From NCBI GenBank assembly GCA_036172245.1, contig JAYWIR010000003.1:3100001-3164000 (forward strand): a stretch of DNA of 64,000 nucleotides, given 5' to 3'. Positions 36,798 to 58,573 of this stretch are shown here, in pieces. The notes beneath the pieces were generated by a model, which saw only the letters and a program-made list of their open reading frames with translations, ran no database searches and was not told where the DNA came from. The stretch's first letter is position 1, and the number at the start of each line of letters is the position of its first letter. The stretch comes from Raillietiella orientalis (taxonomy: Eukaryota). Made by a program: the position numbers and the translations under genes.

Positions 36798-38194
36798 TGT
36801 TATTCGGGGACTTTTTATAAAATATGCATAATAATAAATAAGAAACTATGCAAAATTTTTTGTGTAGTATTGCCTTTTTATAAAATAGTTCTCAATAGCT
36901 TTCTTTAAGTAAATTATAACTTTTACCTCGAAAAGGACATGATTTAGCAGGCATTAATACATGCAAATGATTACCACCCGTAACAAGATTTAAAATTTCT
37001 GAAGCTCAAGGTTGCCAGTATCATGATGAAAGTTATTAATTATTTTCTTGTGAGCTTGAGTAGAAAACAGCCACATGATCAAATTCTTATAAAAGGTTCT
37101 GGATTCCAATGAAAGACTCCAACTGGAAAATGCAAAATCTATTATTTCAAGTGTTCGAAGCGAGGAGTGAAATGCCTGATTTCAACAGACTTTATCAAAG
37201 TTATTTTTTTTACTGGGGTGCGGTCTAAATTGCTAACAGAAACAAAAAAGTGAAAATGCAGATGCATCCCCCCCCCCTCCAAAAAAAAACCTTTTGATTA
37301 CAAGTAAGCAACAAATACTTAAATTTTCCTAGCAAAAGCTGTGTAAGGAGTTGACACAGATAAGCAGTAATAAAACAAATTTACAAGCTCTAAATTTAGG
37401 CAGAATTGCATTCAGGAGATAGATACATTCTCATTTGAACACTATTTGGTAAGTGACCTTTCTCGGAAGCGAACATATCTGCAAACAATAGTTGTCACCA
37501 TTGGCATTTCGCAAGAAAATTTTACGCTTGAGTTTCCACTTTGTCTCCTTAAGTAAACTTGCTTTCTTTGCTTATGTTTGCACTTTCTAAATATTACCAA
37601 AAGTGGAGTCTAGATTGAGTTTCTTTGACAACAAAAATAAAAGCATCCGTATTCGAAAATTCGTAAACAAATAATACGAAGGTTAACGCTTTAGGATCTG
37701 CATATCAAAAGTCACCGCTTTCTATTGATTCTGTTTATTCTAATGAGCTATATTGTTTCATTCTTTTAAGCAGTGCAAACTTATTGATGATTCACTCTGC
37801 ACCTTTTATGAGTTCATTGTGAAATTGAGAATGCTATGCTCGGAGCTGAAGTGTTTGCAGGTAAATAAAAAGGTAATAAAAAAAGCGAATAGCACGCCAC
37901 TTATCTCTCTCTCTAGCATACAAGAACACTCTTTCAAAGAAGTTTTGCTGGCGCATCACGAGATTCAGACCGGACAGGATAATAGGAGAATGTTGAATGT
38001 TACGAGCCCCTGGAAACAAAGCATGAACTGCTAAAACAGTCTAACTTTTCACTCAGTTGAGAAAATGAAAATACAGAAGCTGTACTGTTTTCTTACTAAC
38101 TGTGTGAGTTCTCTAGCATTGTATCCTTTTTCAATGGATAATACAAATCGTCATTTATCCTTATTAATCTTATAAAACAGAAAGCATCTTTCGT

Positions 38195-38385
38195 AATAAA
38201 GTTTCTTTTTCTTTGTCTCCCCTTGACCTATGCTCCCGAGGCGAACCCCTCTGGTCTGCTTGCCAGTTTCCAGCAGGTTCCTTCTCGTAGTTATAAGTAA
38301 CTTGGCAGGATCGAACGTTCTGCCGCAGAAGTATATGTTTATTTTTTATAAATAAACGTTCCGGTGTGACTGGCCGTGTTAACCA
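38195..38385 (+). mobile_element. L1/Tx1-like 3'-UTR-only copy (A)
   Basis: Aligns with 39300-39465: gctcccgaggcgaacccctctggtctgcttgccag vs gctgccaaggagaacctcactagtctgcatgccgg, then tatgtttatt..ttttata..aacg..cggtgt. Confidence 0.6.
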
Positions 38386-38399
38386 GTGCTGCACCTGAA

Positions 38400-39465
38400 T
38401 GGGCCAACCAGTGTCATCCCGCGAAGGGGACACGAAACCCACGCCGCACCCCCGATTTCTCGGTGCCGATCCTCCACGTGGGGATTCTAACCCGCAACTG
38501 GTGGTGCCACGCTCGGAGTCCACAGCCATGCGGTCGCTTATGCGGGCGGAGGAGACCTCAGAAGGCTCCATGTGTGCCCTCTAGTCCTAGTCCGAAAGGA
38601 TTGAAGCTCAGCTGATAGGCAGAATCCAAAAAGGAAAACGTGGCAGCAAGTGTCCTGGTGGGAAACGAACCACCAGACTGAGGACACGCCAGGCGCAAAG
38701 CGGCAGGGCATTTAAGGAACAACAAACTACATCCGCCAACTACCAACTAGGGTGAGCAGCTGGGAATTCCACAGAAACACCTCGAGTGTCCCCCTCCCCC
38801 CCATCGCTGAAGAACAACCGGCCCTCTCCCTGAAGCGGCAGGAGTCGGAACTCCTGCTGCTGCACTGTGGCCTCCCGTGCAATGCCCGCCGGTCTCCCTG
38901 GACCCAGGGGGCTGTGGACCCAAACTGCTGCGGGGAACAGGAATCCTTCCCGCACCTGCTCGTAGACTGTGTTGCCCTCCTGACCCTGTGGTTGCGTTAC
39001 TCAACAGCCCTTGGTGCACCGACGGACAATCGCAAGGACGCCTCTTCGTGCGCGATCCCCAGCAGCTCTATGCTGCTACCTACGCGGGATTGTGGCTGTC
39101 TGGAGTTACGAGAGAGGAGGACGGCATGACAGGACGCCGTCTGCTCCTTCCTGCGCCTCCTGCAGGGGGCAGCAGGATATCTCCACCTGGGGCACACTCG
39201 GGTGGAACTTGCCGGCATCCTGGAAAGGATGCAGAAGACGCCCTCCAGCTCCCAGTGATCCTTTCTCGTGTTCCCCAAAGTTTTTGTTTTTTATTGATTT
39301 TTATTTTTTTTATTTTTGTTTGCCCCTCCGCTGCCAAGGAGAACCTCACTAGTCTGCATGCCGGTCACTCAACAGGTTTCGAGCATTTTCGGATGATGTA
39401 GGGCCAATGACCCTACACATGTATGTTTATTATTTTTATAATGAACGCCGCGGTGTTATTGGGTG
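38400..39465 (+). mobile_element. L1/Tx1-like 5'-truncated copy (B): zf-RVT region plus 3' UTR
   Basis: LSLKRQESELLLLHCGLPCNARRSPWTQGAVDPNCCGEQESFPHLLVDCVALLTLW is colinear with LPLDWQETALLVLHWGLLSRARLSHWTLGRLDAHCTECGETETFPHLLIEC of the 19.3-20.4 kb copy. Same ccccaa + T-tract 3' UTR. Confidence 0.75.
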
Positions 39466-39479
39466 CTGAACCAAACTAC

Positions 39480-41505
39480 ACCCTCAGTCTATTTCCCTGC
39501 AGTGTTCTCCACCAGGAAGCTCCAGAGTCAGTGAAGGCTGCCGGGGGATTTCTCTCGAAACACCTTCCCGCTTTCGTCCAGCGGTATTCGTGTTAAGGAA
39601 ACCTTCCTCTCGGTTTGCGAGTGATTGCTTCGCGAGCAGAGTCACTCAGAACCACCGCTGGCGGGTCAAGAACTCAGCCGCCTGTGAGCCGTGTCCAGTT
39701 CCACAGCACCTTGCTTCTGCACTGCTGTGCAGAAAGATGTCCCATCCACGGCATCCACTAAATGGGCCGGAGTTGCTTGGCGATGTCCCGGACAGGGTTC
39801 CTCCAGCGCCTCGTGCCGGAGCGCGCACCGCGGTCCGATCCGGTCCGGACGAGCGTGCGCGCAGGAGAGAGAGGGAGATCCCACATTATGGAGAGGCTTC
39901 CATCGTCAACCTGGAGGGATCAACTCCTCCAGAGGGGACCCATCAGTGAAGTCAACCAGCACTCCTCTGGAGTATTCGCAGTATCTGCAGCATCCTCTTC
40001 CTCCGGCGTCGTCCCCGATCCTCTTGAAGGGCATGCGGGATGAGGAGACCCGTTTCTCTTTCCCAGAACGAGGTTTGTCGGGAATTTCGAGTCCGCCATC
40101 GGCTTGCCGAAGGGCCGCCGCCAGCTGCGCGCGCGTCACCTCTCTCGATTGGTCCACCGGGCATCTCCAAGGCCTCCTGGTCGTGACATCCGACTGCCCT
40201 CAAGCGGAAAAGTTCTGGGAAAGAAACGGCTGCAGACAACCGGCGGGATAAGACCCCTTCCGCGATTTGGATGGAAAGCGGATAAAATCCCAGGTGGCTG
40301 ATCGGTGGGCACCGTCCTGGACGACGCGCTGACCCTACGGTGACCGGCCGGTGGAGCTTCGTAGCATCGCACCTAGGCTGCCCCCTTGCGGGTCGCTGTG
40401 CGCCACGCGGCCACCGCCATCCCTTGCGCTGAGGAGGGAGGATCCTCGAGAGATGGGCGCCGATGCCCCTGGGCAGGGGAGCTTCACCGAGCTGCGGCAG
40501 GTGTGGAAACAGGAACCGCCCTTCCGTCCCCTCGGGAGCTGTGGCGTGTAGGCGGCTGCGGCTTCCGCGCGCAGCACCGAAAGTCCCGGGTTTGAATCCC
40601 CCCGTGGGACGCTAGGAGGGCTCTAGGATTCTTGGACACGGCGCTGGGATGACGCTCGGCAGGTTGGAGATAGGATGTCTCTGCCGGCCAGCCGGAAGTA
40701 GGGCAGGTCCTCCGTGATCCTCCCTGAAGTCACGGAGCGCCTTAGTTTGTGTCCTAAAGCCTCGACCCTCTGTCCTTCCGGAGTGCGTCCTCCGTCGTGT
40801 TCGTGGAGTTGAAATCCCCCGAAGGGTTTCCAGTGGCCGATTGGCAACGCCCGGCAGCAGTCCCGTTGCAGGGCTTCGTCCCTGGAGGGGTCGGCGCGAT
40901 GATGCTTCGAGAACAGCGCGCGGACCTTCTCCACCCAGCCCTCACAGCGAAGGAGCTGCGCCAGCAGCGGCGGGATGTCGTCCATTTCGCTTCGGAGGTT
41001 CGCTGATGTGGTCCACCTGCGGCAAGGGGAGAGGGAGGAAGGCGCCACTTGCATCGCACGCAGGCTGCAGAAGCTGCGTATGCGGACCCCTCCTGCCCCG
41101 AGGTCAAGAGGTGACCCCTTCCCCTCCCTCCACAAACACACATTTATCGTTCATTTCCCCTCGTTCATCGCCTCCTGGTCCTTTCCTTCCCCAACTTGCA
41201 AGGCAGCTGACTTGGAAGTTCCTCTCCCCCCCCCCCTTAAACTGCTCGCGGGGTCCCAAGCGTGAAGTAAAAACGAGCTCCTGACCATTTTGGATAGCTG
41301 GCGCCCTCGGCGCGAACGGGTGGTCGAGGTGAAGGAAACTCGGAACCTCAGTTCCAGCACAAGACCGCGGGGGGGACTCTGCCAGCACTAGGGTGAGCCG
41401 CTGGGAATTCCATAGAAAGACCTCGAGTGTCTCCCTCCCCCCCATCGCTGAAGAACAACCGCCCCTCTCCCTGAAGAGGCAGGAGTCGGAACTCCTGCTG
41501 CCTGC
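39480..41505 (+). mobile_element. L1/Tx1-like copy (C): decayed, internally deleted ORF2, 3'-truncated
   Basis: 41387-41500 is near-identical to 38746-38860. Upstream relic peptides in L1 ORF2 order: PGGINS (GGDFN-like, ~39915), STGH...FWERN (SDH...WKLN-like, ~40155-40228), DAPGQGSFTELRQVW (PGxDG-like, ~40460-40505). Confidence 0.5.
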
Positions 41506-42603
41506 CCGCTCCTGGAGGATGGGAACAGGGCGGCAAAGAAAGGTCGCTCTACAGCCGGTGCGGAGATGACCGGGATGCAGGTAACGGAAGGTGTCGGTCA
41601 GGAGAGCGAGAGGAAGGAAAAACCCGTGGCGCCAGAAGGAAAGAAAGATACACGAGTCCTCCACTGGGCGAAAAGAATGGCCGGAGGCGGAGCTGTGGTG
41701 TCTACCGACTCCGCGACAGATGCTGTCCGGCGGGAAGAGTCGAAGAGGAACCCCCCGAGGACGAAACAATGCCGCGTCCATCCCACTCTCGGCTTCGGAT
41801 GGAGGTGCAGAAGTGCGGGACCCGCTCCTCAGACGGCGATCACGTCACCGCAGCTATTCCTGCGAGGCGGAAGCGCGCGTGCCCTGCGCCCACCTCTATG
41901 GGGCCTTTTCCTGCTCCGGTCGTGAGGCGCGGGTCGCTTACAGCGTGCTTTCCAGGGTGGGAACGGCTGGGAAGCTCTTCCCTAGCCCTAGCAGCTGCCC
42001 ACTTTCTGCCCAACCCTCAAGAGGGGTGAGAGCAAAGAGAGGGGGAGGCATCCCGTTATCCCCTCCCCCTCCTCCACCACCACCACCACCTCCCCGCGCC
42101 TTCAGCGATGCGACGTCGAACTGTGCCGGTCCACGCGCGGGTGCATTCACTAGAAGACCCCTCAGAGAGGATGGCGGGAAGGAGAGCGAAGTGTTCCGGC
42201 TGCCCGCGGGCGTGATGTCCTCCGGTCTCCGAGCGGACTCCGAGGGGTCGTGACGAATCCTGAGAAGGAAGAAAGGGCGGCAGTCAGGGGGGCGGTCTCT
42301 CCGCGCTAAGCGGCGGCTCTCAAAGGCTCCCGGAAGGCGGATCGGAAGGGAGGAAGAAAAGGAGGAAGATGAGGGACACCCTTCCTTCGGGCACGGGCGA
42401 CTCGCGGCAAGGTTCCCGTTTATTCCTCCAGCTCGGTTCAGGGACCGCTGCCGTCCGTGCCTTCCCCCTCCGCGGGGACGCCCCAGTTCGAGCGGTGGCA
42501 GTTGTTGAGCGATCACAGTCGGCCTCCTTGCGGCAGTGGCAGGTGCGAAAAGGGGGGGTCACCAGCAGCAGCGAGGGGAGGAGGGGGACGACCAGGAGAG
42601 CCC

Positions 42604-43604
42604 TCAGAAGAGGCTCTTCAGGAAGCCCACGGGGTCGGTGGCCTGGAAGCGGAGAAGAAGGAAGATAGAGCGTGGAGGGGGGGGGGGCTCCTTGACCTGA
42701 GATCTACTCGGGTCTTGGGTCCTGGTCGCAGAAGAGGCTGCCGGAGACGCCCGCATCTTAGCGATGTACCTGGAATAAGGCGGAGGAGGAGGAGGGCCGT
42801 CTCGGAAGAAGAAAAAAAAGGAAGGGGAGGAAGATGGAGGGGGAGCAAACGACTCCGCTCGTTCTCCTCTTCCTCCCCCCCCCCTTTCCCCGAGAGAGAA
42901 GGAGAGGGATGAGCCGCTCACTCCTGCAGCTGCTTGATCTGGTTGTCCTTCTCCGCTTGCTCCTCCTGCAGCATCTTCATCAGGCTGAACAGCCTCTCCA
43001 GCTCTTCCTGCGTGTGCCTCAGCTCCTCCTCGGCCCGCGCCAGCTTCTCCTGGCACTCGCTGTGCTCCTTCCGAGCAGCGTCCAGCTCCGCGTTGAGCCT
43101 TCCAAAGTCTCTGCCCATCTCCTCGTCCCCGATGCCTCCTCGGGACTTCTCGGGGAAGGAAGCAAGGGAAGAGAGGGAAGGGCAAAGTCAGCTGGCTGCC
43201 GAAAATCGAGACGCCGTTCCCTCACCTCGGCTTCCTTCCTCACTTCCTCTTCTATCCTGCGGATCTCCTCCTCCTTTCGGTCGAGCTCCTTCGCCCTCTC
43301 TTCCAGGCTGCGCCGGGCCTCTTCGACCAGCTGCTGCTGCTGCGGGGCGGCCGCCGCCTGCCTTTCGAGCTCCGACTAGAAGGGAAAGCGGAGGCGGACG
43401 CAAGGACAGGAAGGGACGCGGGGAGTGGGAGGAGGAGAGAGCGGGCGTCCACCTTGAGTGACCTCCCTTTCCCCAGAGCCATTCTCACCCTCGCCTTCTC
43501 TAGCTCCTTCTCCAGCTGACGCAGCTGCCCCTCCGTTCTCTCCTTCTCCTGCTTGACTTTGGACAGCTTGTCGGTCAGCTCTTCTAGCTCTCTCTTTGGC
43601 ACGA

Positions 43605-43636
<32 letters not shown>

Positions 43637-46600
43637 GCAGCTTTCGTCTGTCTCTTTGCCGTCTCCTCCAGCTGGGATCGCAGCTCCTCCTTCTCCTTGG
43701 ACAGGGAGCGGACCTGAGCCTGCAGCAGCTTCTCGGCCTCCTTCTCGGCCGCCCTGGCCTGCTCCAGGGCCTCCAGCCTCTGGCGCAGTTCCTCGGACCG
43801 CTGTCTCTCCTTGCGCAGCTCCTCTCGGGAGGCTTCGACCTCCCGTCGCGCTCCTTCCTGGAGGGCGGTCATCTGCTTTTCCCTCTCCCGGAGGGCCCGG
43901 GTCGCCGCCTTCTGCTCCTCCTCTCCGGCCCCAGCTCCCTCACTGCGCAGCCTCTCCAGCTCCGCGTCGGTGTGCTGCAGCTCCTGCTGGAAGCTGACCA
44001 GCATGTCCTGGGACTTTTCCAGCTGCAGGACCAGCTGGTCCCTCTCCGCCATCAGCTGCCGCAGCTCGGCGTTCAGCCGGAGGGCCTCCTTCTCCCACTT
44101 GTCCCTCCTCTCCAGGGCGGTCTTTAGGCGCCCATTCTCCTCGCCCAGGGCCCGGACCTCCGCCTGGCAGCGGGAGACCTCGGCCGCGGCGGCGGCCAGC
44201 TCCTGCTCCAGCTGCCGTCGGAGGTGCTGGACGGCGCCGGGGTCCGCGGCGGCGTGGGCGGTGGCCGCCGCCCTGCGGTTCAGCTCCTCCTGCAGCACGT
44301 CCCTCTCCTCCTCGGACCGCCGCAGCTCGTTCGCCGTGCGGTCCAGACGCTCGTGCAGCTTCTCCATCTCCTGCAGCATCTTCTCAAACTCGACCTTGGC
44401 GGCCTCGTTGGCATCCTGGTACTTGGCGATCCTCTGTTCCCCTTCCTCTAGCCTCCGGCGCAGCTCCGCCACCTCTGCCTGCGCCTTCTCGGCAGCGGCG
44501 GCTCCCGCGCTGGCAGTACCACGGTGGTCGTGCGCCCTCAGCAGGCGGTCCATCTCGGAGTGGGCATGCTGGAGCTGCTCCTGCAGGATCGCGTTCTCGG
44601 ACTCCAGGGACTCCGTCCCGCGGCGGAAGCGTTCCTGCTCCTCCAGCCTCTCCTGGAGGATGAGCACTTCCTCCCTCGCCTCCTGCAGCTCGCGCTCCAG
44701 CATTTTCCTCCTCCACTTTCCTGCCTTCCTGATCGTCCGCCTGCCTTTCCTCCTCCTCCTTCGTTCCCCGTCCTCGTCCAGTTCCTCCGCCTCCTCCTCC
44801 CCTTCCTCCTCCTCGTCCTCCTCCCCATCTCCGTCTTCCTCGTCCTCTTCGTCTTCCGCGGCGGCGGCGACGGAGGGCGCGTGCGGCGGCGGCTCCCGGT
44901 AGGGTGTGGTCTCCATCAGCCGCATGAGCTCCTTCTGCTTGTTCTCCAGCTCGCGGCTCAGCTTCTCGTTCTCCTGGACCGCCTTGCCGCGGCTGCCCTC
45001 CAGGTACATCACTTCCACGCGCAGCTTCTCGCCCTCCTTCTCCGCCCGCTCCAGCTGGGCCCGCGCCCGCTCCAGGTCCTCCCGGGCCTTCTCCAGCTTG
45101 TCCCGCAGTCTCTCTCCTTCGAGCTGCAGCCTCTCCGCCCGCGCCTGCAGCCGCTCCTCCGCCTCCTCGCGCTCGCGCGCCCGCGTCTGCTGCTGCTCCA
45201 GCTCCGCTCGCGCGCACTCGCGCCCTTCCAGGAGCAGCTCGCGGTCGGACTGGCACTTGGTCAGCTCCCTCTGTAGCTGCTGTAGACGGTTCTGGGCGCT
45301 CTCCAGCTGCGCCCGCAGTTGCGTCGCCTCCAGCGAGCTGCGCTCGCGGGTCGCCTGCGACGCGCCCGCCTGTGCCCTCAACTGCTCCGCCTCCTGCATG
45401 GAGCGCCTCAGCGCCTCCTGCAAGGAGTCCCTCTCGGACTGCGCGCTGTGCAGCTCGGCCTGGCCACGCTCATGCTGCTCCTGGAGCTGCCAGATCTTCT
45501 GGTACAGCGCGTCTGCCTCCTTCCGGCTCTTCTCGCTGGCTTGCTCCAGCTTCGCGGACGCCCGCTCGCACGCCTCCTGCAGGCTGGCACGCTCCTCCTG
45601 CAGGCGCCGATTCTCCTCGCGCGCCTTTTGCGCGGCCTGCTGTTCCCTTTCCAGGTCCGACCTCTGGCGGGAGCACTCCTTGTGGAGGTGGTCCGCCCGG
45701 GACTGCAGGCTGGCCAGCTCCGAGGCGTTCCTGGGGGCAGAAAGAGGGGGGAGAGGGAACGCTGGTAAGGGGCGCCGAGATCCCTCCTCACCTTTCCGCT
45801 TTGGCTGCCATCCTCTTCAGCTCCTCCCGGAGCGCGTCCCGTTCCTCCTCTGCTTTGAAAGCCTGCGACTTCGTTCGGTCCAGCTTTTCCTTCATCTGGG
45901 TCAGATGCTTCAGCAGCTCCTCCTTCTCCTGGCGCGACCGCTCCGAGCTGGTCTCCTTCATCAGGGACTGGTCCCTGAGCACCGCGATCTCGGCCTGCAG
46001 GGACTCCTTCTCCTTCTGCATCCTCTGCTGGTTAGTCTGCAGGGACTCCAGCTTCCCGCTCAGCTGCTCCGTCTCGTTCTTCAGCATCTCCTTTTCCTTC
46101 AGCGCCTTCATCAGCTGCGCCTGGATCAGGGAATAGCACGACGTCATCGCCTCCCTCCGCGCCGACTCCTTTTCGATTCCGCCCCCTTCCGTCCCTGACG
46201 ACCTTCCTTTCTTCCACCCCCCTTCCTCCTGGCCCCACTCGGTGCCGCGCCTTCCCGTCCTCCCTTTCGTTGGAGATCCCCCGCTCCCCCTTCCAAAGCA
46301 TCCCTTCCCGACTGCGGCTCCCCTTCTCCGATCCCTGCCCGACCTGCGTCTTTTCCGCCTTCTCCTTCTGCTTGACGCTCTCCTCCATGGCGAGCTCCTT
46401 CTCCCTCTGCAAACGGGACGCGTGCCCTAGGTGCTTGTCCACCTGTGTCTGGAGACCATCGCACTCGTCCAGAAGCCTCTCCTTCTCCATGGACACCTGT
46501 GGGAGGGAAAGAGGAGGCGCTAGGAGGGGGAAGCCCCGCGCACCCCTTACCTTCTTCATGTCTGCCTGGCAACGCTCTAGTTTCCCCTGAAGCTGGTCCA

Positions 46601-49600
46601 TCTCCCTCTGCTGGTTGTCGATGGTGTCCTGCAGCTTGACCAGCTGCTGCTGGAGCTTCTCCTGCGCCAGGGTCGCTCTCTCGGCCTCCTCCTTCATCTT
46701 GCCGATCTCCAGGAGCGCCCGATCGTGGTCGGCGTGCACCCTGGCCAGCGTGCCCTGCGCCCGGTCCTGCTCCGCCTGGAGGGCCTCCTTCTCCGACTGG
46801 GCGTTCTCGAGCCTGGCCCGGAGCCGGTAGATCTCCCCTTGGGACTTCTCCAGTTTCCCCTGCATCTGCTCCAGCTCGGCCGCTGTCCTCTCGAGGTCGC
46901 TCTGGCTGATGCGCAGCTCCGCCTGAGAGCGGCGCAGGTCGGCCTGCATCTTCTCCAGCTTCCCCGCCGTTCCTCCTCCTCCCCCGCTGCCGCCTCCGCC
47001 GCCTTCGGCCTCCCTTGGACCGCAGACTCCGACTCCCCAGGAACGGTGGTGGTGGTGGAGCAGCGAACCGGAGGGGGAGCCGCCAGCCGCCGCCACCGCC
47101 GCCTCCAGGCGTTCGTTCTCGGAGCGTAGGCGCTCGTTCTCAGCCTCGAGCTGGCTCAGGCGCACCCGGCCCGCGTCCCCTGCCTCGAGGCGGTGTGTCC
47201 GGTCGAGCTCAGCCTTGCACTTGCCCAGGTCGGACTGCGAGGCCTCCAGTTTGGCCTCCAGCCGGTCCTTCTCCACGTACAGGCGCTCCACGCGCAGCTG
47301 CAGCTTCTCCAGCTCGCTCGCCTGCGTGTGCAGCCGGATCTTGTGGTCCGCCACGTCCCTCTCGTGCAGCTCCCTCTCTTCCTGCTTCTCGTGCTCCGCA
47401 CGGTCCCTCTGCTCCCGCAGCTGCTGCAGCTGTTTGTCTCTGTCCGACAGCGCCTCCTCCAGGGACGTCACCGCGCCCTCCGAGGTGCTCTGATGAGCCT
47501 GCACGCAGGCCAGCCGCGTTCGCACCATCTCCACCTGGTTGTCCTTCTCTTTCAGCAGGTCCTCCAGGTTCTCCACCTACGTACAGAAGCCCTCCCCGTC
47601 GGGAATCCGGCATCAGGGGCAGAAGAGAGCGGCAAAGCGGGGGGGAGGGGGAGGGACCACCCGAGCTTCTTCCCTGCTGGGGCGCCGCGCTGTCCCCCGG
47701 GGTCGACGTGGCAGCCCGGGAGGGGAAGGGACGAAGAGGGATCCAGCGCTCGGTTCCGGGGGGAAAGAGGCCGGAAGTGGAGGGCGGAAGTGGCGGTCCC
47801 CACCGCCTTGGTGTCGTTTCCCCTTCCTGCTATCCCCGCCCGGAGGGTGTCCCCTTTCTTCACGAGGGAGGGGATAGATCCTCCATAGAGGACCGGTAAT
47901 GGCGAGGGGAGGTGGTGGCGTGCGCGGGGAAGGCACCCACCTTTCTCTGTAGGACGTTCAGCTTCCTCTCTTTGATGTCCATCTGGTCCTTGAGCTCGTT
48001 CAGCTCGGCGTGAAGACGGTTGCGCTCCTGGACCGCCTGCGCTGCCTGCTGCGTCTTCTTCTCGATGACCTTATTCTTCTCTTCCAGCCTCTGTCGCAGC
48101 TCCTCCACCTGGACAGAAAACAGGCGTCTCTGCTGGACTGCTCCCTATTAGCTCAAGGGCCGCTCTGCGGCAGGAAAAAGAACGCTCCCTCTCCGGCACC
48201 TTGCGCCCTCCCCGCAGCTCCTGAATGTGGCAGAGAGAGCTCCGTCCCTAGCATCTTTGGCAACGCAGTCCGTCCTCCCTCCTTCCCAGGTCCTTGTCCT
48301 ATTCCCTTCCTTCTCCTCTTCCTTTCCTCTTCGTGACCCCTACGACACCAGCTGAGCGCGTCCGTGCTTCGTTACAGCGCTCCTGGACGCGAGACCAATC
48401 CTATGGAAGCGAACTGATGACGTCACGAAACCGTTCGCTTGCGGCGCACCCCGAGAGCCAGTAGACACTCCTAAGCTCGCATATCTCCCGTCTTCTCTTT
48501 CCCGCCCTTTCCAAAAAGGGATCTAGGAAGGAGAACAGGAAGGATAACACCCCTTTCTACGACGGGGACCCTTGCAAAATCCAGTCATCTCCTGTAGCGA
48601 TCGAAAGCGGGAGAAAAAGGGTTCATGAAGATGAAGAGCGCGGAAATAGACGATCTTTTCTTCTTCCGCTTGGATCGCCAAACACCGTCTCTTCTGTACC
48701 CGACTCCTTTGTCACCGTCTCTCTTACCGTCATCTCCTCTGTTCCTGTCTCCCTTGCCACCACCTCCTCTTTCATCATTCCTTCTGCCCCCTTCTTTCTC
48801 ACCACCGTCTCCTTTGCCGCCGGCTCTCCTGCCTCCATCGTTTTTGACTCCATTTCTTACTCGTGTTGTTTTTATTGTCGTCTTCGTTCCTCTTCCTGTT
48901 GCTCTTCCGTCTCGTTCTCTGCCCCGCCGCATGCCCGAACCGCCATCTCCTGCAGGTCGGCTCGTGCATGCCGTAATTTCCCGAGATCACCCGCTCTAAC
49001 CACCCGGCTTGATTTCGCGTTCTCCTCCCTTCAGTCCTTCTCCCAGTAGGTCGAGTTCATCCGTAGTGGGAGGCGAGTCAGCATCTCACTGTCAGCCACG
49101 GAACTGTGGCCCTCTAGCAAGTTCCCGGAGCGATTTTCGTACCAGCGTGGCACCTCACTCCGTTCCCGTGCTCTAGCAAAGCTCCCCGAGCGAGCATTCG
49201 TCGCGTTCCCAAGGGTGCCTCGTCCTCCTCGCTGACCCTCAGGTGTATCTCAAACGAGGAGAGGGAAAACTTCTGAAAAGAACCTGGATTCTGGGAAGGG
49301 AACGGTCCTCCCTCACTCTCTTTGCCTCCTCTTCGGAAGGCGAGTCTCCTTCCGCTGAGACCGCGGACTGCTGTGGTCCTACTGGATGTCCAGCATGTCC
49401 CAGCCGTGCAGCTCCTTCGAAGGATGCGTCAGCATCAGCACTCCCTCCCCTGCTCCCATCCCGAGGTGTCGACACGCGTAACGAACCCAAGAAGTCCCTC
49501 CCTCTCTCCTTGACTACCGCACTTACGTCGCTCTGGAGCATGTTGTAGTGCTCCTCCTTTGCTGCCAGGGACTCCTTTAGTACGGCTATGTGCTTCTGGT

Positions 49601-52600
49601 AATCAGCCTGCTGCTCCTCCACGGACTTCAGCTTGGTTGCCAGAGTGAAGATCTCTTGGTCCCGCTTCTCGATCTCCTGCCTTCCGGCATCCACCTGCAA
49701 AACGCAGCTTCTGTCTGCTGGCATATGCGGAGCGCGTGAGGCCGAGGGGGTAGAGGGTGGTTCTGCGAAACCGTGGTCTCCGCTGACCTGAGCCCCGTGA
49801 GCAGCAGCTCCTTCCCCCGTGGGTCGGTCGGAAAGCTGGAGGGAGGGGAAGGTTGGCGTACCACACCGCACGAACGTGCCAAGTAAGGGAGCGCCCGGGA
49901 AAGGGCTCTCGCACGGCAAGGACGAGGGAATAGGCGGAAAGGGAAGGAAGGCTCTTGTCAGCCTTTTCTTCCTTCCGGCTCATCGAAGGCGAATTCTCAG
50001 GCTTCCCTCGGCAGGAAATCGCCAGTACCTCGGCGGACTCCAGGCTGGGGGCGCGCTTACAAGAGACCTGCATCTCCGGAACGTGCGGACGGAATCTCGT
50101 AGGCAACCAGCAGCACTCAAGAAGCACGTCCGTTCGGTTTGGGCGGCTTCTGCAACATGGCTGCAACATGATGGGATCTTCGGAGGAACAACCGCGAGCA
50201 CAGTTCTCTGCTTTCATGGAAAGAAAGGGGAGCTCGGAGTAGTCAAGGGAGGGAGAGTGGAGGACGGGATGGCTCCCATCCCTGAAGGGGAGGGAAGACT
50301 CGGGTGGACAATGGCTTGTCCTCGGACGCGCCGGAGGACCGCATTCCGGCTGGAGGAGGATCGACACCACATGTGCGCGAGGATCGAAAATGCAAGGATC
50401 AGATGCAATCACCTGCTTCTGCACGGCCAGCTGCATCTGCTGGAACGTCTGCCTCTCGTCATCTTTGGCTGGATAAAGACAAACACAGAGATTAAAAGCC
50501 GTGAAGGGACACGGTCAGAATTTGCAGAATGAATTCGAAGGTACCAGACACAGAGAATCCGAGGGACAATCGCGGTACATCCCAGCAACAATCGCAGTGC
50601 ACTGCAGCGACAATCGCGGTGCGTTCCGGCAACAATCGCGGTGCGCCCCGGCAATAATCGCGGTGCGCCCCCGCAACAATCGCGGCGCACTGCAGCGACA
50701 GCCGCGGTGCGTCCCAGCGATCGTGATCAAGCACTCCACTTCCAGTCTATCAAATTACTGTCTCCTCTGCTCTGGAGAAGTTCCAACAGCTTCTTGATAC
50801 TTTCGTCCCTGGTGGCGATCGTTTGCTTTTGACTGTCGATGCGCAGCTCCAGCTCCTGCAAAGAACAGGCCAAAGATCAGATCTCTTTCTCCCGAAAGTA
50901 CTTGGCTTCCTTTTCTTGGTCTCTGTACAGAGCTCGCATTCCGCTCCGATCCCGTCTCCCCAGCTACGCAGAGCAAGCGTCCCCCCCTTGCAAGGACGCT
51001 GAGGGTGCCTCGGCAGTCCCACGCTCCGGAGCTTTGGAGCAAAGGAAAACGGAGGGAGTTCCAGCGCTGGCTCCTGGTGCGCGGCACGACTGCGCGGCAT
51101 CGCCATTTCGCCTTCCGTGCCACCGCGCTCCAGCCGCCGTCCTGCCGCACCAGGATGTCAACGTGGCACCATCTGAGGTTGTCTCCATCAAAGGAAAGGG
51201 GAAAATTGGGAGGGACTCTGGGACTTCAGATGTGGTTTTTCTGGCGCCCCTGTCGCCATCCCACCCCACCCCACCCCTCGTTCGCGTGTGGACCTCTGTA
51301 TCCTCTCAGAGGGGCTCGGGTTTGCAGCGGCGCGGGATAGCGCACTCCTTCGGGCTTACCTTGACCGTATCCTTCAGAATAATGACCTCCCTGGCGAGGT
51401 GCTCGTTCTCAGAGAGCAGAGACTCCACCTGCTGCCGCATCTCCGCAGAGGGCGCCTGCTGGTGCATGCGTAGGCGGAGCTCGTCCTCCAGCTGCCGGAT
51501 CAGCATCGTCTGTTTCTGGAAGAGGGAGAGGTGGGCGAAAAGAGCAGAGACCCTCTATTTTCCACCACTTGCCTCTAAGACCTTCCCTCCCTCCCTCCAG
51601 GCAAAAGGAGCGCCCCGTGGAGCTCCTTCGCAGTTCAGGAGGTCCCTGACTTACTCGAATCGCTCCTAATCCTCCTTCTACCGCGAGGAGTGGCGAAGGC
51701 TTGGGCGGTTGCCGGGGTGAACGCCTAGGCTCATCGCATCCCGTCTTCTACCGTGTCCCTCTCTGCCGCGCCACGCCCGACCCTCCCGCTGCGAAGGCAC
51801 GCATACCGCCGCGCCAGCTCTCTCCGTGAACAGTCCCTCCCCTCCTCCCGCGAGAAAGAAAGGGTCGGGAAAAGGGGGAGGGGATGGTGCCAGCGTCGAA
51901 ACCTTTTGGGGGGAGCAGAGGAGAATGCGAGCCTTCGCCTCCTCTCCTTTTTCCGACCAACCTCCCTGCCCACCTCCGCCCCCCCGCAGCCTCAAGTGGG
52001 AAGTGGCGAGGTGAAGGGGCGGCATTTTCTCTCTGGGCAGCGCTAGGGGAGGTCACCCCAGGCTGCGCGCACCGAGGAAGGGGGAAGGTTCCAGCGGATC
52101 CGAGACGGGTTGCGAGGATGAGGAGAAAGGGAGGAGGAAGAAGGGAGGAGGCGAGGAGCGGGTGGCCAGCGAGCCGGGAGGAAAGACGTACAGGAGGAAC
52201 ACCTTTCCCGTGGGATTTGTGAGGTGAAGTCGGTTTCTTAGTCAAGAGACGACGAGGGGCACGAGGCAGAGAAATTCCCGCCCTCCTCCACGGGAGTCAC
52301 GCTGAGGGTGCTGACCAGGGAGCGCTTCCTACTCTCGCAGCATACATGTCTGGCTGCACGTGTCACACGACATTCAAAGAGAAGAGCTCGTCCTCCTCGT
52401 TTTTCCAAGGAAGAAATGAGGGACCAAGATGGGGTCGGTTCCGCAAGACACCAAGAGGAAGTCTTTGTCATGACGCGGGCAAGACGGAGTCGCCGCCACG
52501 ATTACAGTCGTGAGGCGCCGGCTCTCAAGCTACGCACGCACGCGCGAGAGAACCCCGGAGATCCGCTTGCAGCCTGACCTGAGCATCGCGAACAACGAGC

Positions 52601-55600
52601 GGGGTAGAGCGAGCGCGCACACGTCCCACGTCTGCGTTGCCCCGCGCTCCTCCGGGACGGCGATGAACGTGTGCTCTGTCTCGCACTGGCAGCTGGGCAC
52701 GGAAGCGTGCCATCGGATCACGTGCGAACGCACGCACGGACACGCACTCGCAAACGACGTCTCCTCCTCCGCTTCCGTTTCCGACCGGAAGTCTACGGAT
52801 GTTTCCGCTACCGTGCAAAACGGCCGAGTGCCATCCAGCCGTCGCCAGGCGCTCGCGCCCAGCTCACGAAAGAAACCGCGAGGCGAAACGTGAGGGACGC
52901 TTCGAAAGATTCCCCGTCCCAGAAGGGAGGGGGAGGGGGCGCATGTCTCACTGTTTCCAACCCCTCAACAACGCCACCCCCGCGCGTGCAAATCAGGAAA
53001 CCGGCAGCGTGCTGCGAGATGATCTTGAGGAAGCTCGGAGCGAACGTAGAGGTCAGCTTAGAGTTCTCATGTTCGGAAGCATCCCTGGGAGGATCTTCGA
53101 GGTCCTCACAAGGAGATGAACTTGCGGATGGTTTTAAATCCCTCTTATCGAAGCGCATGACTTCGACAGAAGACGGTACAGAGGTGCACGGCACGCTCGC
53201 ACAAGGATGCTCAAGAAACGTCAGACGAAGAAGCTGCATGTATCGACCGAATGCCACGATCCACGTGCCGGACTCACGAGATGCCTCGATGCGTGATGTC
53301 TCGTTGCCCTTTTCACCCCCGCGCTGCCGTTTACTCGAGAGGCACGTGGGACGTAACTCCAGGGGGCAGTTCCTCGTTCTGAATGGATGCCCTTCGTTTC
53401 CGAAGAGTCTCTCTCCAAGAGTGGAGGAAGGATCTGCTACCGGTTCTCGACGACTTGAGGATGGCTCCACTCCGACAGTTATCTCGAGCACGCATGCGCC
53501 CACAGTGGAAACGAGGAAGCAAGCGTGCACGATGGGAACGCAGCAGAAACTTCCCGTTTCTCGCCACTTGTCCCTTCTCCCCCCCCCTCCTCCGTTCGCA
53601 ACGACGAGGGACCAGGGTGTGTCCGCGTGTCCGCCGACTGCTCTCGCAAGGACGCGTGCGTGCGCCGAACTGGAATTTCAGAAAGAGTCAGAATACATTT
53701 GGGGTGATCCTCCCGGACAGCCGTGGATGTAAGGTAAAAGCGTCTTTCCGAGTTTCACAGCACCCCAGATCTTCTCCGTGACAGGCGACGCTGCGAGCCG
53801 CACCAGGTTCTCCTCATCCCACCCACGTCTCCCGTCTCCCTGGACGCTGTCCAGCAGTATCGACGGACCGCCTGACGGACCAGGGAACCCCGAGTTTACG
53901 ACTTTCCGAAGTAGTCGGTTATTGCGACATTCAGGCGAGAGTCCTAACAAAGCAGCAAACAAGAGATCTCGGGCTCCGCAGCTTCTTCCCGGGCGCGTAC
54001 ACACAATCGATTGAACAAACGCATCTCGAGAATCTGGGATTTTTGGTTTGATCCCGTGAAACTGCTTTCGCCGAGGAGAGAGAGTGAATCGAAGAAAAAG
54101 TCCCTTGGGTAGAAGAAATCTTTTGATCCTTCACAGACGATGCTGAGGAAAAGGATTTATGTGTGTGCGTGTGTGCGGGGGGGGAGGGTATATATATATA
54201 CGTATATATGCACATCACTTATCCACATTATATATTCAGTGGAACGGAATTTCTGCATGTGCGTATATAATATAGGTATGTCGCTTATATAATATGTGCA
54301 CGCACACACACATGTAAGTGCATTATAACGTGTATATATATTATGGTGCGTACATATATTATAATGCATTATATGTAACGTGAATATATACATACACATA
54401 CATGCACGCACCCACATACACATATTCACAGAGAGCTTGAAAGCACCGAAGGCGAGCAGATAGGGCATTTTCGGATTCATTCCGTCTCTCGGAAATTATT
54501 CATTCTGAATCCTCGGGCAGTGACCACGAGCGTCGTCGGTTAACATGTGCAAAGTATAGGTCCGAAAGCAGCAAATGATGTGTGCGCGCGCGCGTGTGTT
54601 TTCCTTTCATTCTTTTTCTTTTCTGTGCATGAATCAAGCCAAACACTTTCGAATTGGGGGCTGACATTGAAATTCAGAAACTTATATTGATTGGCAAGAG
54701 ATCCCCAACCCCTGCTCTGGGAGAGATTCCTCTCTCCGCCCGCGGCCCTCGCTGGAGCAAGTATTTCACCCGCGATCTGCGCGCCTTGCTCTTTCTCGCT
54801 CGGAAGGATCCCCGTCCGCTGTCCGTCAGATTTTCACCCTCGAGTGCACGCACCACGACCAAGATAACCGCGGGACGCTTCCACCCCCATGGCATCCGAT
54901 CCCATTTACCACTCTGGGCTCGTGGAAAGCGCTTCGAAACCTCGAGAAAATGGTGCTCGGTGCGTCACCGTCGCGATGCCTCTGGCTGCGGCGAAAGGCA
55001 GCTTCACCATTCCGCAAACGGATATTCAGGCGCATCTCTTGGATCTTCGGGGGAAAACGAAAACGAAATCTCAGGATGCCTTTTTCGTTTCTGAGCGTTG
55101 GACCTTTTAGAGGATTTGCCAATGCAACGCAACCTTTCGTGCGCATTAGGACACACACACGCAGTCTCGTTTTCAGAGATCTGCGTTCCGGTTTTGTTCT
55201 GTGTGGAGCTAAAACTTCCCTCTTCCCGCCCCGCTGACTTTCCGGATTCTGCACCGCTCATTTCGAGATGCAGCTTCCCCGATCTCCACCATCCACTCCT
55301 CCGTTATTCCGGGTGGTAGACTTATTGCCCTGAATAATGCAGAGGAGAGCTTGGTTCCACCTTGCTACTGATGGATGCTTGGTATTTCCTTTTGGTATTC
55401 AGAAAAACATCGCCGGCAAAAATCCTCATTTCGGGATTTTTCGCGGATGAGGAATGCTTGAATAAACCTCCGCAGTTCATCCTCTTTGGGATTTGAGTAA
55501 GCCATGCATTGCACTTGAACCGTCTCTTGAAGTCGATTTATTTTCGTGCAGAGCACAGAAAATAGATATTAGATATGCGTGTTTAGGCATGCATTTTTAC

Positions 55601-58573
55601 TTTCATTCAGTGGAATGGATGAATTATGTCTGCATGCTTCTGTATCGTGAATTTGATATGTTCTTTAGCGATCAACTTGAAATTTACATTGTGTGATCCA
55701 ATGCATAACTTGGAAAGTATAAAACTTGAAGCCGCGCGTTAAGTTTCCAAAGATGGTACAGAACTAAATTCGGAACCTCTCCTCCGTGTATTCTATTTCC
55801 TCGGATTTTATAAGCATTTTCTACAGCACTTTTTATTGCCTTTACTTCAAGGGTAATGAATACCGCCACACAGTCTATGCACTACTTCTTAAAGCTTTCA
55901 CATCCGATAGGGCGTTTTTTTTCGATGATATTCCTTCCTCTTTCTTTTTCTTTTTCTTTTTTTTTAAAAATCTCTGTCTAGCAGACAGTCGTGGTAAGCA
56001 GTCTTTTATGTATAGAAGCTCTGCAAGCGGCGGCAGGCACACCCTGTCAAACAAGGAATCCATCTTTTGCGCTCCATACCCGGAAACGGATGCCAGGTTG
56101 TAGAAACAAGGCATCATGTACGGGTTATTTGTTTGCCGGGGGGGGGGGGGAGGGATATGGGATATGGGCAAACTAGTTTCGAATGAAAATGAAAAAATGA
56201 TGCTGAACAGCTGAATACATGAGTACGTCTTCCTTTACATGCTCGTGCATGTGTACCGAACACATCGTTATGTACTTTCGGCGAATTCATTTCGAAATCA
56301 GATGGGAACATCGATTTTTATATATATTGCGGGATCGGGAAGCGTGTTCCCATCTTTTCACGATCGTGACATGGCAGTTCATATCAAATGCAAACCCAGG
56401 CAGCAGAAACAAAGCTTCAAGAAACTTCCGGGTTGCAAGGACAATCCCGTCAAAGTGCCCTCTATGCGTGCATCGAAATGTACCGTCGAAATATTGTGGA
56501 AAATGCATCTCGGCAGGACATGGCTGTGGTTCAACAGGGATTCCACGTGTCTGCCGTTGGAAGAAATGAAGACCAAATCGGAAATGGAATTAAGCAAAGC
56601 CGCGCTTGGGAATTGGCATGCCGATATACGACGATTCTACCGACATGTTTCACGACTGCATATTCGACTTTTGCTAACATTTTAGTTATGGTTGGGTATG
56701 AGTTTGGTATTTACGCCTTCCTTTCCCCTGATTCCGTAATTCCCAAATCGAATCCGTGGGATTCGGGTACGCAGACTGAATATTAGTTCCTTCGTATGGG
56801 AAATGTACGCAGACACTGCCCATTACAGAGTTCATAAAATCATTCGATAAAATCGTCCTGCGAGGAAGGATTTTTTTTGCAGGCGTTTGGAAAACTTCAC
56901 GGTTTCCTTTCTGATTATGGCAATGCCATTTGCCACTCGAGTTAGTTATTCACCGCTGACTGGAAGTTTACATATTCACGTATCTATCGCCGAAAGTTTT
57001 TTTTTCTTAGACATGAGATTAATTTGAAATGACTGCTCATAAGTGCTTCCAACTGCTTCGTACAATATCGATTGTGAAACAACTGGCCAATTCCGAAAAG
57101 ATATAAAAAAAATCGAAGTATAATAAATCACGATTAGCATGCAATTTAGACCGCATTATTACTGTACTTTTACTTTCAAAAAAATGAAGATGCCCACGGA
57201 TGCGATCAAAAAATAAACAAATAAATACGTACAGTCCAAAACGCGGAAATTGAAACCAAATTTATGTTTTCATGGATTCCGAATAATACAAACTTTCAGC
57301 TAACTATGACTTACAAGAAGTATCTATAAATTGGCATTTCTAGAGAACGAGGCAGTTTTGCAGTTTTGTGGTGATTTCTTCAAATATGCAAGAGAGCATT
57401 GAATGCTTTCAGTAATAACATGTATGAATCTGTGCAAATTAATGCTAACGAGTAAGTCCCACAAAAATTTGCATTTGTATCATTTATGGTCGTTATCAGA
57501 GTAACATTCATTCTGTTGCAAAATGGATTCGAATTACGATACACGTGTACAAGTTTCATGTCTTCGAGCCGGGCACATTATCATATGCTTTAAAACAAAA
57601 ATTAAGATTATTAAAAAAAAAAAAATATCTAGCAAAGGCACACAAATAATGCTAAATAATTCTAAATCTGTGTCATTTCTAAATTATCAATCTTATAAAG
57701 CAAAAGAGTTCTTACTTGATTTTCGGAATTTAATAGCTTTAACTGATCATTCATTAAAGCATACTTTGCCATTTCTTCTTTGCGCAAAGCTCTTTCCTTC
57801 TTTAGCTCTGGACTCCAGAATGTTTTTATGCTGTGCATACTGGAACCCAACTTATCGTTGCTCATTTCTACATCTTTTCTTAAAGAAGAAAGTTCTCTTT
57901 GTAATTCCTCATTTTGCTTCTGCAGTTCGAGAATGTAGGTATCTCTGGTAATACCATGCTTCATGGACAATTCTCTTTTGGGAGAATGCATTCTGCTGCC
58001 TCTTGATGAATAACGATCGTTGGAAATACCTTCTTCTCCTATATTTGTTCTATCTATCGACTTATCTCTTGCACGGGAATGATGTCCCGATTCCGGAACA
58101 CGTTCATATGAACGATCTCTGTGATCACGAATGGGGACAAATTCTCTTTCAGATACATCTTTATCAGGTGCATAACGGTTTCTAGCCGGAGTATTGGAAC
58201 GATGGGAGTGAACAGGGTTAGATGCTATCAAACTTCTTCTATCAGAAGAGTCCATAACTGGACTGCAGTTTTCTTCGGTATACATATGTCTCTTATACTT
58301 TCCAGAAGAATTCACAAAAAATGCATTGTTAGAGATACTATGGGGGATACAGTTATGGATGAATTGCACAGGAGAGTTATTATTCGAACGAGATACTGCT
58401 CTATTGCTTCGCCTACTATATGCAGAACCATTCTGTGAGGAAAAAAAAGATGAACAATTGTGCGAAGGTGATTTATCAACGTATGGAAGTTCGGTGTGGT
58501 GGTAACTATGCTTCTGAAAAAAGGTTGGAGATTCTGCATGGTGCATGGTAGCAGTTTCTGGGGAATCTTGCAT
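42604..58573 (-). CDS. brp: Bruchpilot-type ELKS/CAST/ERC presynaptic active-zone protein, ~1900 aa
   Basis: 14 exons in consistent phase: 58573-57716, 51515-51360, 50855-50759, 50468-50413, 49694-49527, 48108-47941, 47576-46551, 46496-46344, 46120-45792, 45730-43489, 43375-43226, 43148-42922, 42769-42697, 42642-42604. ELKS motif KLGSSMHSIKTFWSPELKKERALRKEE; BRP-like LIRQLEDELRLRM, DDERQTFQQMQLAVQKQ, HIAVLKESLAAKEEHYNMLQSDVEELR; long coiled-coil extension; C-terminus PVGFLKSLF*. Start Met inferred. Confidence 0.9.
50565..50718 (+). repeat. Minisatellite, 7 x 22 bp (consensus RACAATCGCGGTGCRYYSCRGC), in brp intron 3
   Basis: Units: gacaatcgcggtacatcccagc / aacaatcgcagtgcactgcagc / gacaatcgcggtgcgttccggc / aacaatcgcggtgcgccccggc / aataatcgcggtgcgcccccgc / aacaatcgcggcgcactgcagc / gacagccgcggtgcgtcccagc. 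Confidence 0.9.
54159..54430. repeat. Compound (TG)/(TA)/(CA) low-complexity microsatellite in brp intron 1
   Basis: Alternating purine-pyrimidine runs such as gtgtgtgcgtgtgtgc, tatatatatatacgtatata and catacacatacatgcacgca. Confidence 0.75.

Follow-up and report, generated by a model that had tools for sequence, protein, structure and literature searches.

The brp locus and its GC-rich island

We analysed 64,000 nucleotides of Raillietiella orientalis DNA (assembly GCA_036172245.1, contig JAYWIR010000003.1, positions 3,100,001 to 3,164,000 of the forward strand), hereafter the window, whose coordinates are used throughout. One gene of the ELKS/CAST/bruchpilot type (brp) lies on the minus strand and straddles the right edge of a GC-rich island. 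GC content was profiled in 500-bp bins across the 64-kb window, and the edges of the island were re-profiled at 100-bp resolution. The 31 bins between 38,501 and 54,000 had a mean GC content of 0.621 (sd 0.045, minimum 0.522), whereas the 89 bins outside 38,001-57,500 averaged 0.360 (sd 0.053, maximum 0.582). The compositional island inside the brp gene is real and highly significant. A first-pass annotation of this DNA had described the window as AT-rich apart from one such island, and the sliding profiles (0.62 inside, 0.36 outside) agreed with it, except that the flanks also contain a second, smaller GC-richer patch of 2 kb at 19.2-21.3 kb (0.44-0.58 GC in 500-bp bins).

The GC-rich, CpG-replete domain extends from 38,360 to 54,000 and has no strand of its own; over these 15.6 kb the GC content is 0.62 and the observed-to-expected ratio of CpG (CpG o/e) is 0.83. 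When the modelled exons were masked, the noncoding plateau of the island stood at 0.53-0.69 GC. Its left edge is abrupt, with GC rising from 0.29 at 38,100 to 0.63 at 38,400 in 100-bp bins, that is, over about 200 bp. The right edge is stepwise and patchy and lies wholly inside intron 1 of brp, where GC is about 0.6 at 53.9 kb and has dropped to about 0.3 by 57.0-57.7 kb. This graded transition zone (54,001-57,715, minus strand) corresponds to the 5' part of intron 1, and in it GC declines from about 0.55 to 0.3 at a CpG o/e of 1.0-1.26. At 100-bp resolution the earlier impression that composition grades back across intron 1 was reproduced as a stepped fall from 53.9 to 57.7 kb. An isochore, which is homogeneous over hundreds of kilobases, is not what was found, the domain measuring 15.6 kb and being flanked left and right by AT-rich DNA of the same window. 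The combination of an AT-rich 5' end with a GC-rich body and 3' end in a gene-sized island is mildly unusual.

Gene model of brp

The identity of the gene was supported by several homology searches. The Pfam family Cast (PF10174, gathering score 29.1 bits) matched exon 1 at 75.6 bits, a stretch of exons 7-8 at 37.4 bits and the open reading frame (ORF) enclosing exon 5 at 52.3 bits, all above the cut-off. Of 773 candidates from a word-indexed search with the exon 1 product, 515 proteins reached E <= 0.001; those with names were all arthropod ELKS/ERC/CAST proteins, and the best named match was from Strigamia (51% identity over 79% of the query). Additionally, tblastn with six orthologs gave matches that follow one another in order on the same strand, beginning at 58.4 kb and ending at 46.4 kb. 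Exon 1 ends at 57,716 (…SENQ, donor GTAAGA), and exon 2 starts at 51,515 after TTCCAG (KQTMLIRQLE…); across this junction the orthologs read SENQKQASLIRQLE without interruption.

The exons were chained by a self-written dynamic-programming procedure that used codon log-odds, required GT/AG splice sites and kept the phase. Its codon table was trained on the homology-supported parts of the same gene, so the model is not independent of brp. The predicted gene runs from 58,573 to 42,918 and encodes 1866 residues in 13 exons (12-14, given two ambiguous in-frame stretches). The first-pass annotation, which had numbered the GC-rich exons 2 to 14, was right about a multi-exon gene with GC-rich later exons and slightly off in their number. 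Further backing came from a relative in metagenome contigs (locus L003, see below), in whose ORF of 2369 residues residues 445-1546 aligned with residues 210-1261 of the brp model (39% identity, E 0 in blastp). This alignment spans the junction of exons 1 and 2 and supports the 56-nt exon 4. Insect Bruchpilot has a long additional coiled coil at its C terminus. In the present model, about 980 residues lie C-terminal to the ELKS core, and part of them aligns with L003. No Pfam family matched the C-terminal half of the product, and a C-terminal query of 737 residues brought up no more than 25 library proteins at E <= 0.001 (best 1.1e-10); this half is a fast-evolving coiled coil. In a 31-row tree, the exon 1 product sits on a very long branch (2.73 versus a median of 0.34), outside the insect, malacostracan and chelicerate groups and with no starred placement.

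All parts of the gene are on the minus strand. Exon 1 (57,716-58,573) begins at the first ATG of its ORF, at 58,573, and comprises 286 codons with a GC content of 0.39 and a third-position GC content of its codons (GC3) of 0.325. Intron 1 (51,516-57,715; 6200 nt, GC 0.496 overall) holds the right-hand compositional edge. Exon 2 (51,360-51,515, GC3 0.85) continues exon 1 in phase 0 and is followed by exon 3 (50,759-50,855, GC3 0.72), exon 4 (50,413-50,468, GC3 0.90), which matches an 18-residue spacer of the ortholog L003, exon 5 (49,527-49,694, GC3 0.79), exon 6 (47,941-48,108, GC3 0.84) and exon 7 (47,097-47,576, GC3 0.91). The next 138 nt (46,959-47,096) were modelled as intron 7 with a weak acceptor, or they may be coding; they are in frame and free of stops, would encode a Gly/Ala/His-rich peptide, and fall exactly at a variable linker of 25-28 residues in the orthologs. 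Exon 8 (46,551-46,958) has a GC3 of 0.92. The last 35 codons of exon 9 as modelled (46,239-46,496, GC3 0.85) coincide with a gap in the orthologs L003 and L005, and to judge from these alignments the true donor may lie at about 46,344. Exon 10 (45,792-46,120) is Lys-rich and nonetheless has a GC3 of 0.89. Exon 11 (43,489-45,730; 2242 nt, GC3 0.89) encodes a long stretch of coiled coil in which Ala/Arg-rich, acidic and poly-Gln runs occur, and exon 12 (43,226-43,375, GC3 0.84) and exon 13 with the stop codon (42,918-43,148, GC3 0.87) complete the coding sequence.

The region from 38,400 to 42,917 is the 3' flank or a possible 3' untranslated region (GC 0.613, CpG o/e 0.80). AATAAA occurs on the minus strand at 42,419, at four sites in 39,290-39,431 and at 38,338; considered as poly(A) signals that might mark the left edge of the island, these sites do not fix the 3' end. 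Repeats were also observed within the gene. A perfect (GCT)10 on the plus strand at 43,605-43,635 encodes part of a 12-residue poly-Gln run of exon 11, and an imperfect TCC-type repeat at 44,748-44,857 encodes a long acidic run of the same exon. Intron 3 contains a CpG-rich minisatellite (50,546-50,718) with about 7 copies of a 22-nt unit at 77% matches; GC-rich minisatellites often accompany recombination hotspots in other animals.

All classes of sites are shifted

The switch in codon usage within brp is extreme. GC3 is 93/286 (0.325) in exon 1 and 1393/1580 (0.88) in exons 2-13 (Fisher p 1e-83), and the GC content of four-fold sites is 0.30 versus 0.87. Pooled over exons 2-13, GC at the three codon positions is 0.72, 0.35 and 0.88, and the commonest codons are GAG (251), CAG (160) and CTG (137). 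Specifically, GAG and GAA occur in a ratio of 2:20 in exon 1 and 251:40 in the later exons, and CTG accounts for 1 of 15 Leu codons in exon 1 and for 137 of 193 thereafter. Nine ORF segments of neighbouring genes had GC3 values of 0.29-0.48, in line with the first-pass description of exon 1 as using AT-ending codons like its neighbours, with G/C-ending codons in the later exons.

The noncoding DNA is shifted as well. Introns 2-12 have a pooled GC content of 0.605 (3855 nt), and the six short introns 7-12 (54-138 nt) reach 0.60-0.75. These introns had been described as tiny and GC-rich; the GC-richness applies to introns 2-12 as pooled and the small size only to introns 7-12, introns 2-6 measuring 290-1418 nt. 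The downstream region was also rightly called GC-rich, as the value of the 3' flank shows. Translational selection alone is unable to explain the pattern, as had been argued at first sight, because introns and 3' flank shift too and exon 1 of the same mRNA stays at a GC3 of 0.33. Moreover, the switch occurs inside one transcript, and therefore expression-level selection is not the cause. In introns 2-12, intron 1 and the 3' flank, GC skew was 0.058, 0.009 and -0.010 and AT skew was 0.009, -0.007 and -0.034, respectively; these noncoding skews close to zero (all <= 0.06) argue against transcription-coupled asymmetry. A regional, strand-symmetric process acting on all site classes fits the data. 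In mammals and birds, genes of GC-rich regions likewise have a GC3 well in excess of their intron GC, as is the case here (0.88 versus 0.61).

CpG content of the island and its flanks

The left flank (1-38,200) has a CpG o/e of 0.52, with many bins at 0.1-0.4, compared with 0.83 in the island and 1.13 in the transition zone. The AT-rich 5' part of brp (55.5-59.5 kb) has a CpG o/e of 1.00 at a GC content of only 0.39. The housekeeping neighbours are CpG-depleted (eIF2D 0.28, ArfGAP 0.28 and Med20 0.16), whereas the brp locus lies at 0.83-1.13. From these ratios, the whole brp locus looks unmethylated in the germline and its housekeeping neighbours look methylated. The two CpG o/e groups suggest mosaic germline methylation, a pattern familiar from invertebrates.

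The CpG deficit of the flanks amounts to 0.015 per base (about 1.5 GC points), and the GC gap between flank and island is 0.265. Because this deficit is too small, and because 4 kb of CpG-replete 5' DNA have only 0.39 GC, the island is not caused by an absence of CpG decay. The island exceeds the usual CpG-island thresholds (GC > 0.5, o/e > 0.6): all 31 bins have a GC content of at least 0.52 and 28 of the 31 a CpG o/e of at least 0.6. It is not centred on a promoter, however, since exon 1 and the 5' flank have only 0.33-0.44 GC and the island covers exons 2-13 and the 3' flank.

Relatives of the gene and composition of the protein

Metagenome contigs were scanned with exon 7; 167 stretches matched, and 7 of them encode relatives at 41-65% identity. 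The overall GC content of all seven loci was 0.33-0.47. In four of the loci the longest ORF overlaps the ELKS match, and there GC3 was 0.43, 0.52, 0.48 and 0.20; L004, L006 and L007, with their longest ORF outside the match, were left out of this count. The long ORF of L003 has no switch from 5' to 3', GC3 being 0.32-0.60 in 23 windows of 100 codons. Since GC3 is ordinary in these relatives, the rise in GC is derived in the present lineage and GC-richness is no property of the gene, as judged from relatives that are distant (41-65% identity).

The composition of the protein was compared with that of orthologs in aligned columns, using the fractions of Gly, Ala, Arg and Pro (GARP) and of Phe, Tyr, Met, Ile, Asn and Lys (FYMINK). 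In exon 1, GARP was below the ortholog in 15 of 16 comparisons (0.17-0.24 vs 0.14-0.34), and FYMINK was above it in all 16 (0.24-0.30 vs 0.18-0.27). The N-terminal regions of the orthologs are rich in Gly, Pro and Ala, and the exon 1 product is shifted towards AT-type residues. The conserved exons 2-9 were nearly unchanged (GARP about 0.21 vs 0.18-0.23; FYMINK about 0.175 vs 0.19-0.24). Exons 10-13, compared with 10 orthologs, were strongly shifted (GARP 0.29 vs 0.15-0.25; FYMINK 0.126 vs 0.18-0.25), in alignments that partly represent coiled-coil look-alikes and not strict orthology. The alignment-free composition of whole segments agreed with the aligned columns. Relative to the C-terminal part of L003, the C-terminal half of brp contains more Ala (12.3% vs 6.9%) and Arg (12.7% vs 7.6%) and less Lys (7.0% vs 10.9%), Ile (1.0% vs 4.4%) and Asn (1.5% vs 4.9%), while Gly (3.2% vs 2.1%) is not notably raised. 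The first-pass annotation had suggested that Gly/Ala/Arg-rich inserts reflect a reshaping of the protein by the bias; this stands for Ala and Arg, whereas Gly is not enriched unless the stretch at 46,959-47,096 is coding. Protein composition thus follows the local DNA in both directions. Literature searches, which covered codon usage and GC content in connection with bruchpilot as well as bimodal GC3 among centipedes, copepods and mites, turned up no account of this locus.

Retroelement relics and other features of the window

A relic of a retroelement 3' end, related to the zinc-binding region of reverse transcriptases, lies on the plus strand at 38,716-39,129, and a second partial copy lies at 41,333-41,569. 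Self-comparison of the window showed that the two share a 115-nt repeat (38,746-38,860 and 41,387-41,501, 95% identical). A related relic was found in the AT-rich flank at 19,677-19,876 (blastn 68% over 151 nt, tblastx 3e-11), where the ORF at 19,584-19,931 matched Pfam zf-RVT at E 1.7e-4, below the cut-off. The GC content is 0.58 in the flank copy (19,677-19,876) and 0.66 in the island copy (38,788-38,980). The relics do share the GC-richness of the island, as first noted, but so does the relative in the AT-rich flank; because this copy outside the island is GC-rich too, the trait is largely intrinsic to the relics and weak evidence for a regional process.

Pfam was searched with 147 ORFs (70 aa or longer) taken from the noncoding parts of the island and the patch at 18-21.6 kb. 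Three of them had a match at E <= 0.01, namely Cast (exon 5), zf-RVT below its cut-off (flank patch) and HC2 far below its cut-off; no island ORF among them matched a transposon family. The longest ORF (52,608-53,732, plus strand, 374 aa) was considered as a hidden gene and rejected, its length being reached by chance in 19 of 300 second-order Markov simulations. None of the eight long island ORFs tested showed codon periodicity. For RNA genes, Rfam gave 0 matches and ARAGORN 0 tRNAs. By eye, short strings at 38,370-38,560 and about 40,400-40,620 resemble a tRNA T-arm, and relics of tRNA-derived short interspersed elements might lie at the left edge. Outside the island, a pair of 98-nt direct repeats (88% identical) was observed, one copy at 18,104-18,201, about 1 kb upstream of the patch at 19.2-21.3 kb, and the other inside it at 20,521-20,617.

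Neighbouring genes with Pfam matches encode a Bromo_TP histone-fold protein, an ArfGAP, eIF2D, a mitochondrial morphogenesis regulator and Med20. The eIF2D exon at 30,980-32,002 matched WH_eIF2D at 9.9e-23, yet no protein reached E <= 0.001 among 418 word-sharing candidates, which suggests that either the lineage is divergent or the word index falls short. In the protein atlas, the eIF2D cluster has Arthropoda as its commonest phylum.

Discussion

We consider it moderately probable that a local, long-lasting bias towards the fixation of G and C has acted on an intact brp gene, and that the agent was most likely GC-biased gene conversion (gBGC). This process is favoured because all site classes shift together and because gBGC is the established cause in the closest known cases. 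As would be expected of it, GC is raised in every class of sites, the noncoding strands are symmetric, the relatives are not GC-rich and the residues are shifted, clearly in exons 10-13 and weakly in exons 2-9. The right edge also speaks for gBGC, being independent of the exon-intron structure and graded over about 4 kb of intron 1. Under such a mechanism, AT-to-GC changes would have been fixed preferentially over a long time in a domain of about 16 kb, at synonymous sites, in introns, in the 3' flank and at tolerant amino-acid positions. The body and 3' flank of brp would be the focus of recurrent meiotic recombination, which would drive the gBGC. The gene would be unmethylated in the germline, and its CpG-depleted, AT-rich housekeeping neighbours would presumably be methylated and presumably recombine little. 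We infer that the fixation bias is linked to recombination and that methylation helps to set where it acts. The first-pass annotation had pointed to a strong local domain of gBGC or recombination, or to a distinct chromatin compartment, and that interpretation is supported in part. The locus seems to be a local instance of an already known process linked to recombination and not of a new one. A bolder proposal is that a stable hotspot of recombination and conversion, or some other GC-driving regime, has been confined to the body and 3' flank of a germline-silent synaptic gene in a methylated, AT-rich, non-insect arthropod lineage, with a sharp edge and off the promoter, where it has changed some 1580 codons and reshaped that half of the protein which evolves fast; taken as a whole, we regard this as unlikely.

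Several observations weigh against gBGC as the explanation. The GC maximum lies over the gene body and the 3' flank and not over the presumed promoter, which is CpG-replete yet AT-rich; with 4 kb of CpG-replete 5' DNA at 0.39 GC, a simple model in which unmethylated DNA attracts recombination therefore fails to predict the extent of the island. The sharp left edge (about 200 bp) starts in repeat-derived sequence and resembles the boundary of an insertion or a domain more than it does a tail of conversion tracts, and intrinsically GC-rich retroelement relics contribute to part of the 3' flank. Four-fold GC is higher than intron GC by 0.26, which leaves room for added codon selection in exons 2-13. 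Furthermore, the closest outgroup has 65% amino-acid identity, and the case for gBGC is built on composition. In a single sequence, gBGC is not distinguishable from a regional mutation bias that is independent of recombination.

Such a bias of mutation or repair, set by chromatin state, by replication timing or by the unmethylated state of a germline-silent gene, could have raised the equilibrium GC over 16 kb, and it predicts a strand-symmetric shift of all site classes equally well. The position of the island inside a CpG-replete zone (0.83, and 1.0-1.13 at 54-59.5 kb, versus a flank average of 0.52) would agree with it. However, the loss of CpG in the flanks is worth only about 0.015 GC per base of the difference of 0.265, and the CpG-replete zone reaches 5 kb past the GC-rich part, so that an unmethylated state alone is insufficient. 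To our knowledge, localised GC rises this large in animals have been traced to gBGC wherever this was tested so far, which we count against mutation bias; it is somewhat unlikely to be the explanation. It is much less probable that the noncoding GC stems mainly from accumulated GC-rich retroelement relics and that the exons are GC-rich for a separate reason. Relics do lie in the 3' flank at 38.7-39.1 and 41.3-41.6 kb, their relative in the AT-rich flank itself has 0.58 GC, and a shallow DNA run (X1; 0.06 share of words), which may come from the very sample of the assembly, gave 64 short contigs, of which 35 reach no more than 90-95% likeness and so suggest dispersed repeats. On the other hand, only 115 nt are repeated in the island and about 150-190 nt are common to island and flank, no transposon family was recognised among the island ORFs scanned, introns as short as 54-138 nt have 0.60-0.75 GC, and insertions could not produce an exon GC3 of 0.88.

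Selection for G/C-ending codons or for a GC-rich mRNA, through translation, stability or transport of an abundant neuronal transcript, is untenable as the sole cause, and as the explanation we rate it slightly lower still than the accumulation of relics. The excess of four-fold GC (0.87) over intron GC (0.61) and a long coiled-coil protein dominated by GAG, CAG, CTG and AAG codons would suit it, but exon 1 of the same mRNA keeps a GC3 of 0.33 over 286 codons, introns and 4.5 kb of 3' flank have shifted too, and the orthologs have GC3 values of 0.20-0.52. The least probable account is an artefact in which exons 2-13 derive from a different GC-rich organism or locus through a chimeric assembly or a contaminant. 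The abrupt left edge would be compatible with a junction, and among the 64 contigs of X1 no listed record bridges either edge. Exon 1 and exon 2, however, meet at adjacent residues of the orthologs, in the same phase and with canonical splice sites; they join exactly where the orthologs are continuous, and a chimeric assembly is therefore unlikely. In addition, the right edge has no single junction but an interleaved gradient that takes up about 4 kb, the island and the AT-rich flank each hold a relic of related retroelements, and X1 contains exact 151-nt pieces at 51.6, 51.9, 52.9 and 56.5 kb, so that GC-rich intron 1 and the transitional DNA at 56.5 kb are represented at similar low depth.

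Some familiar forms of GC-rich DNA are similar to the island only in part. Vertebrate CpG islands and large unmethylated domains share its GC content above 0.5, its CpG o/e above 0.6 (28 of 31 bins) and its CpG-depleted background, but the brp island is 15.6 kb long and centred on the gene body and the 3' flank, and the presumed promoter and exon 1 are AT-rich. The promoter-centred GC gradients of plants, birds and yeast have the reverse polarity to that of brp, which is AT-rich at its 5' and GC-rich at its 3' end.

Closer parallels are known from gBGC. Mouse Fxy (Mid1) gained GC spectacularly after its move into the pseudoautosomal region (cited in PMC12290510 from Galtier and Duret 2007). 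Like brp, it is described as one gene with an ordinary 5' part and a sharply GC-raised 3' part, with many AT-to-GC amino-acid changes implied (PMC12290510). Unlike in brp, a known translocation has left its 3' part in a large chromosome region where recombination is high (PMC12290510), whereas the brp island occupies 16 kb between AT-rich genes of an arthropod. In the gerbil, runaway GC hotspots with a localised, extreme rise in coding and surrounding DNA were attributed to gBGC (PMC7403616); that case is mammalian and is described for a large region with many genes (PMC7403616), in contrast to the single gene-sized island of brp. The honeybee provides the arthropod precedent. Its genome has a mean GC of 33% with a range of 10% to 70%, and its genes can span several compositional domains (PMC4028053), which resembles the situation of brp, a gene spanning compositional domains in AT-rich arthropod DNA. 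In the honeybee, crossover rate and GC are correlated whether the DNA is coding, intronic or intergenic, the gBGC parameter B rises with GC, methylated housekeeping genes of low CpG o/e are crossover-suppressed, and tissue specificity marks the genes of high CpG o/e (PMC4406589). A survey across insects likewise argues for gBGC (PMC10978632). The flanks in our window are far more CpG-depleted (0.1-0.5 in many bins) than honeybee genes with their quoted mean CpG o/e of 1.19, and no insect, hymenopterans included, groups with the exon 1 product in the 31-row tree.

The jump in GC3 from 0.33 to 0.88 within one gene is a clean natural experiment, in which promoter, expression and mRNA are the same and only the local regime differs, and this contrast separates neutral regional forces from codon selection. 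It also allows regional forces to be seen altering a synaptic scaffold protein, with Ala and Arg raised and Ile, Asn and Lys lowered. Gene finders that take this genome's AT-rich genes as their training set would model such genes wrongly, and sequencing with a GC bias could miss them. If gBGC is the true cause, the locus would extend behaviour like that of the honeybee and of Fxy to another arthropod lineage and would offer a small, well-bounded target for studying what sets the edges of hotspots under mosaic methylation. If other neuronal genes lie in similar islands, they would form a gene-class-specific compositional compartment outside Hymenoptera and vertebrates.

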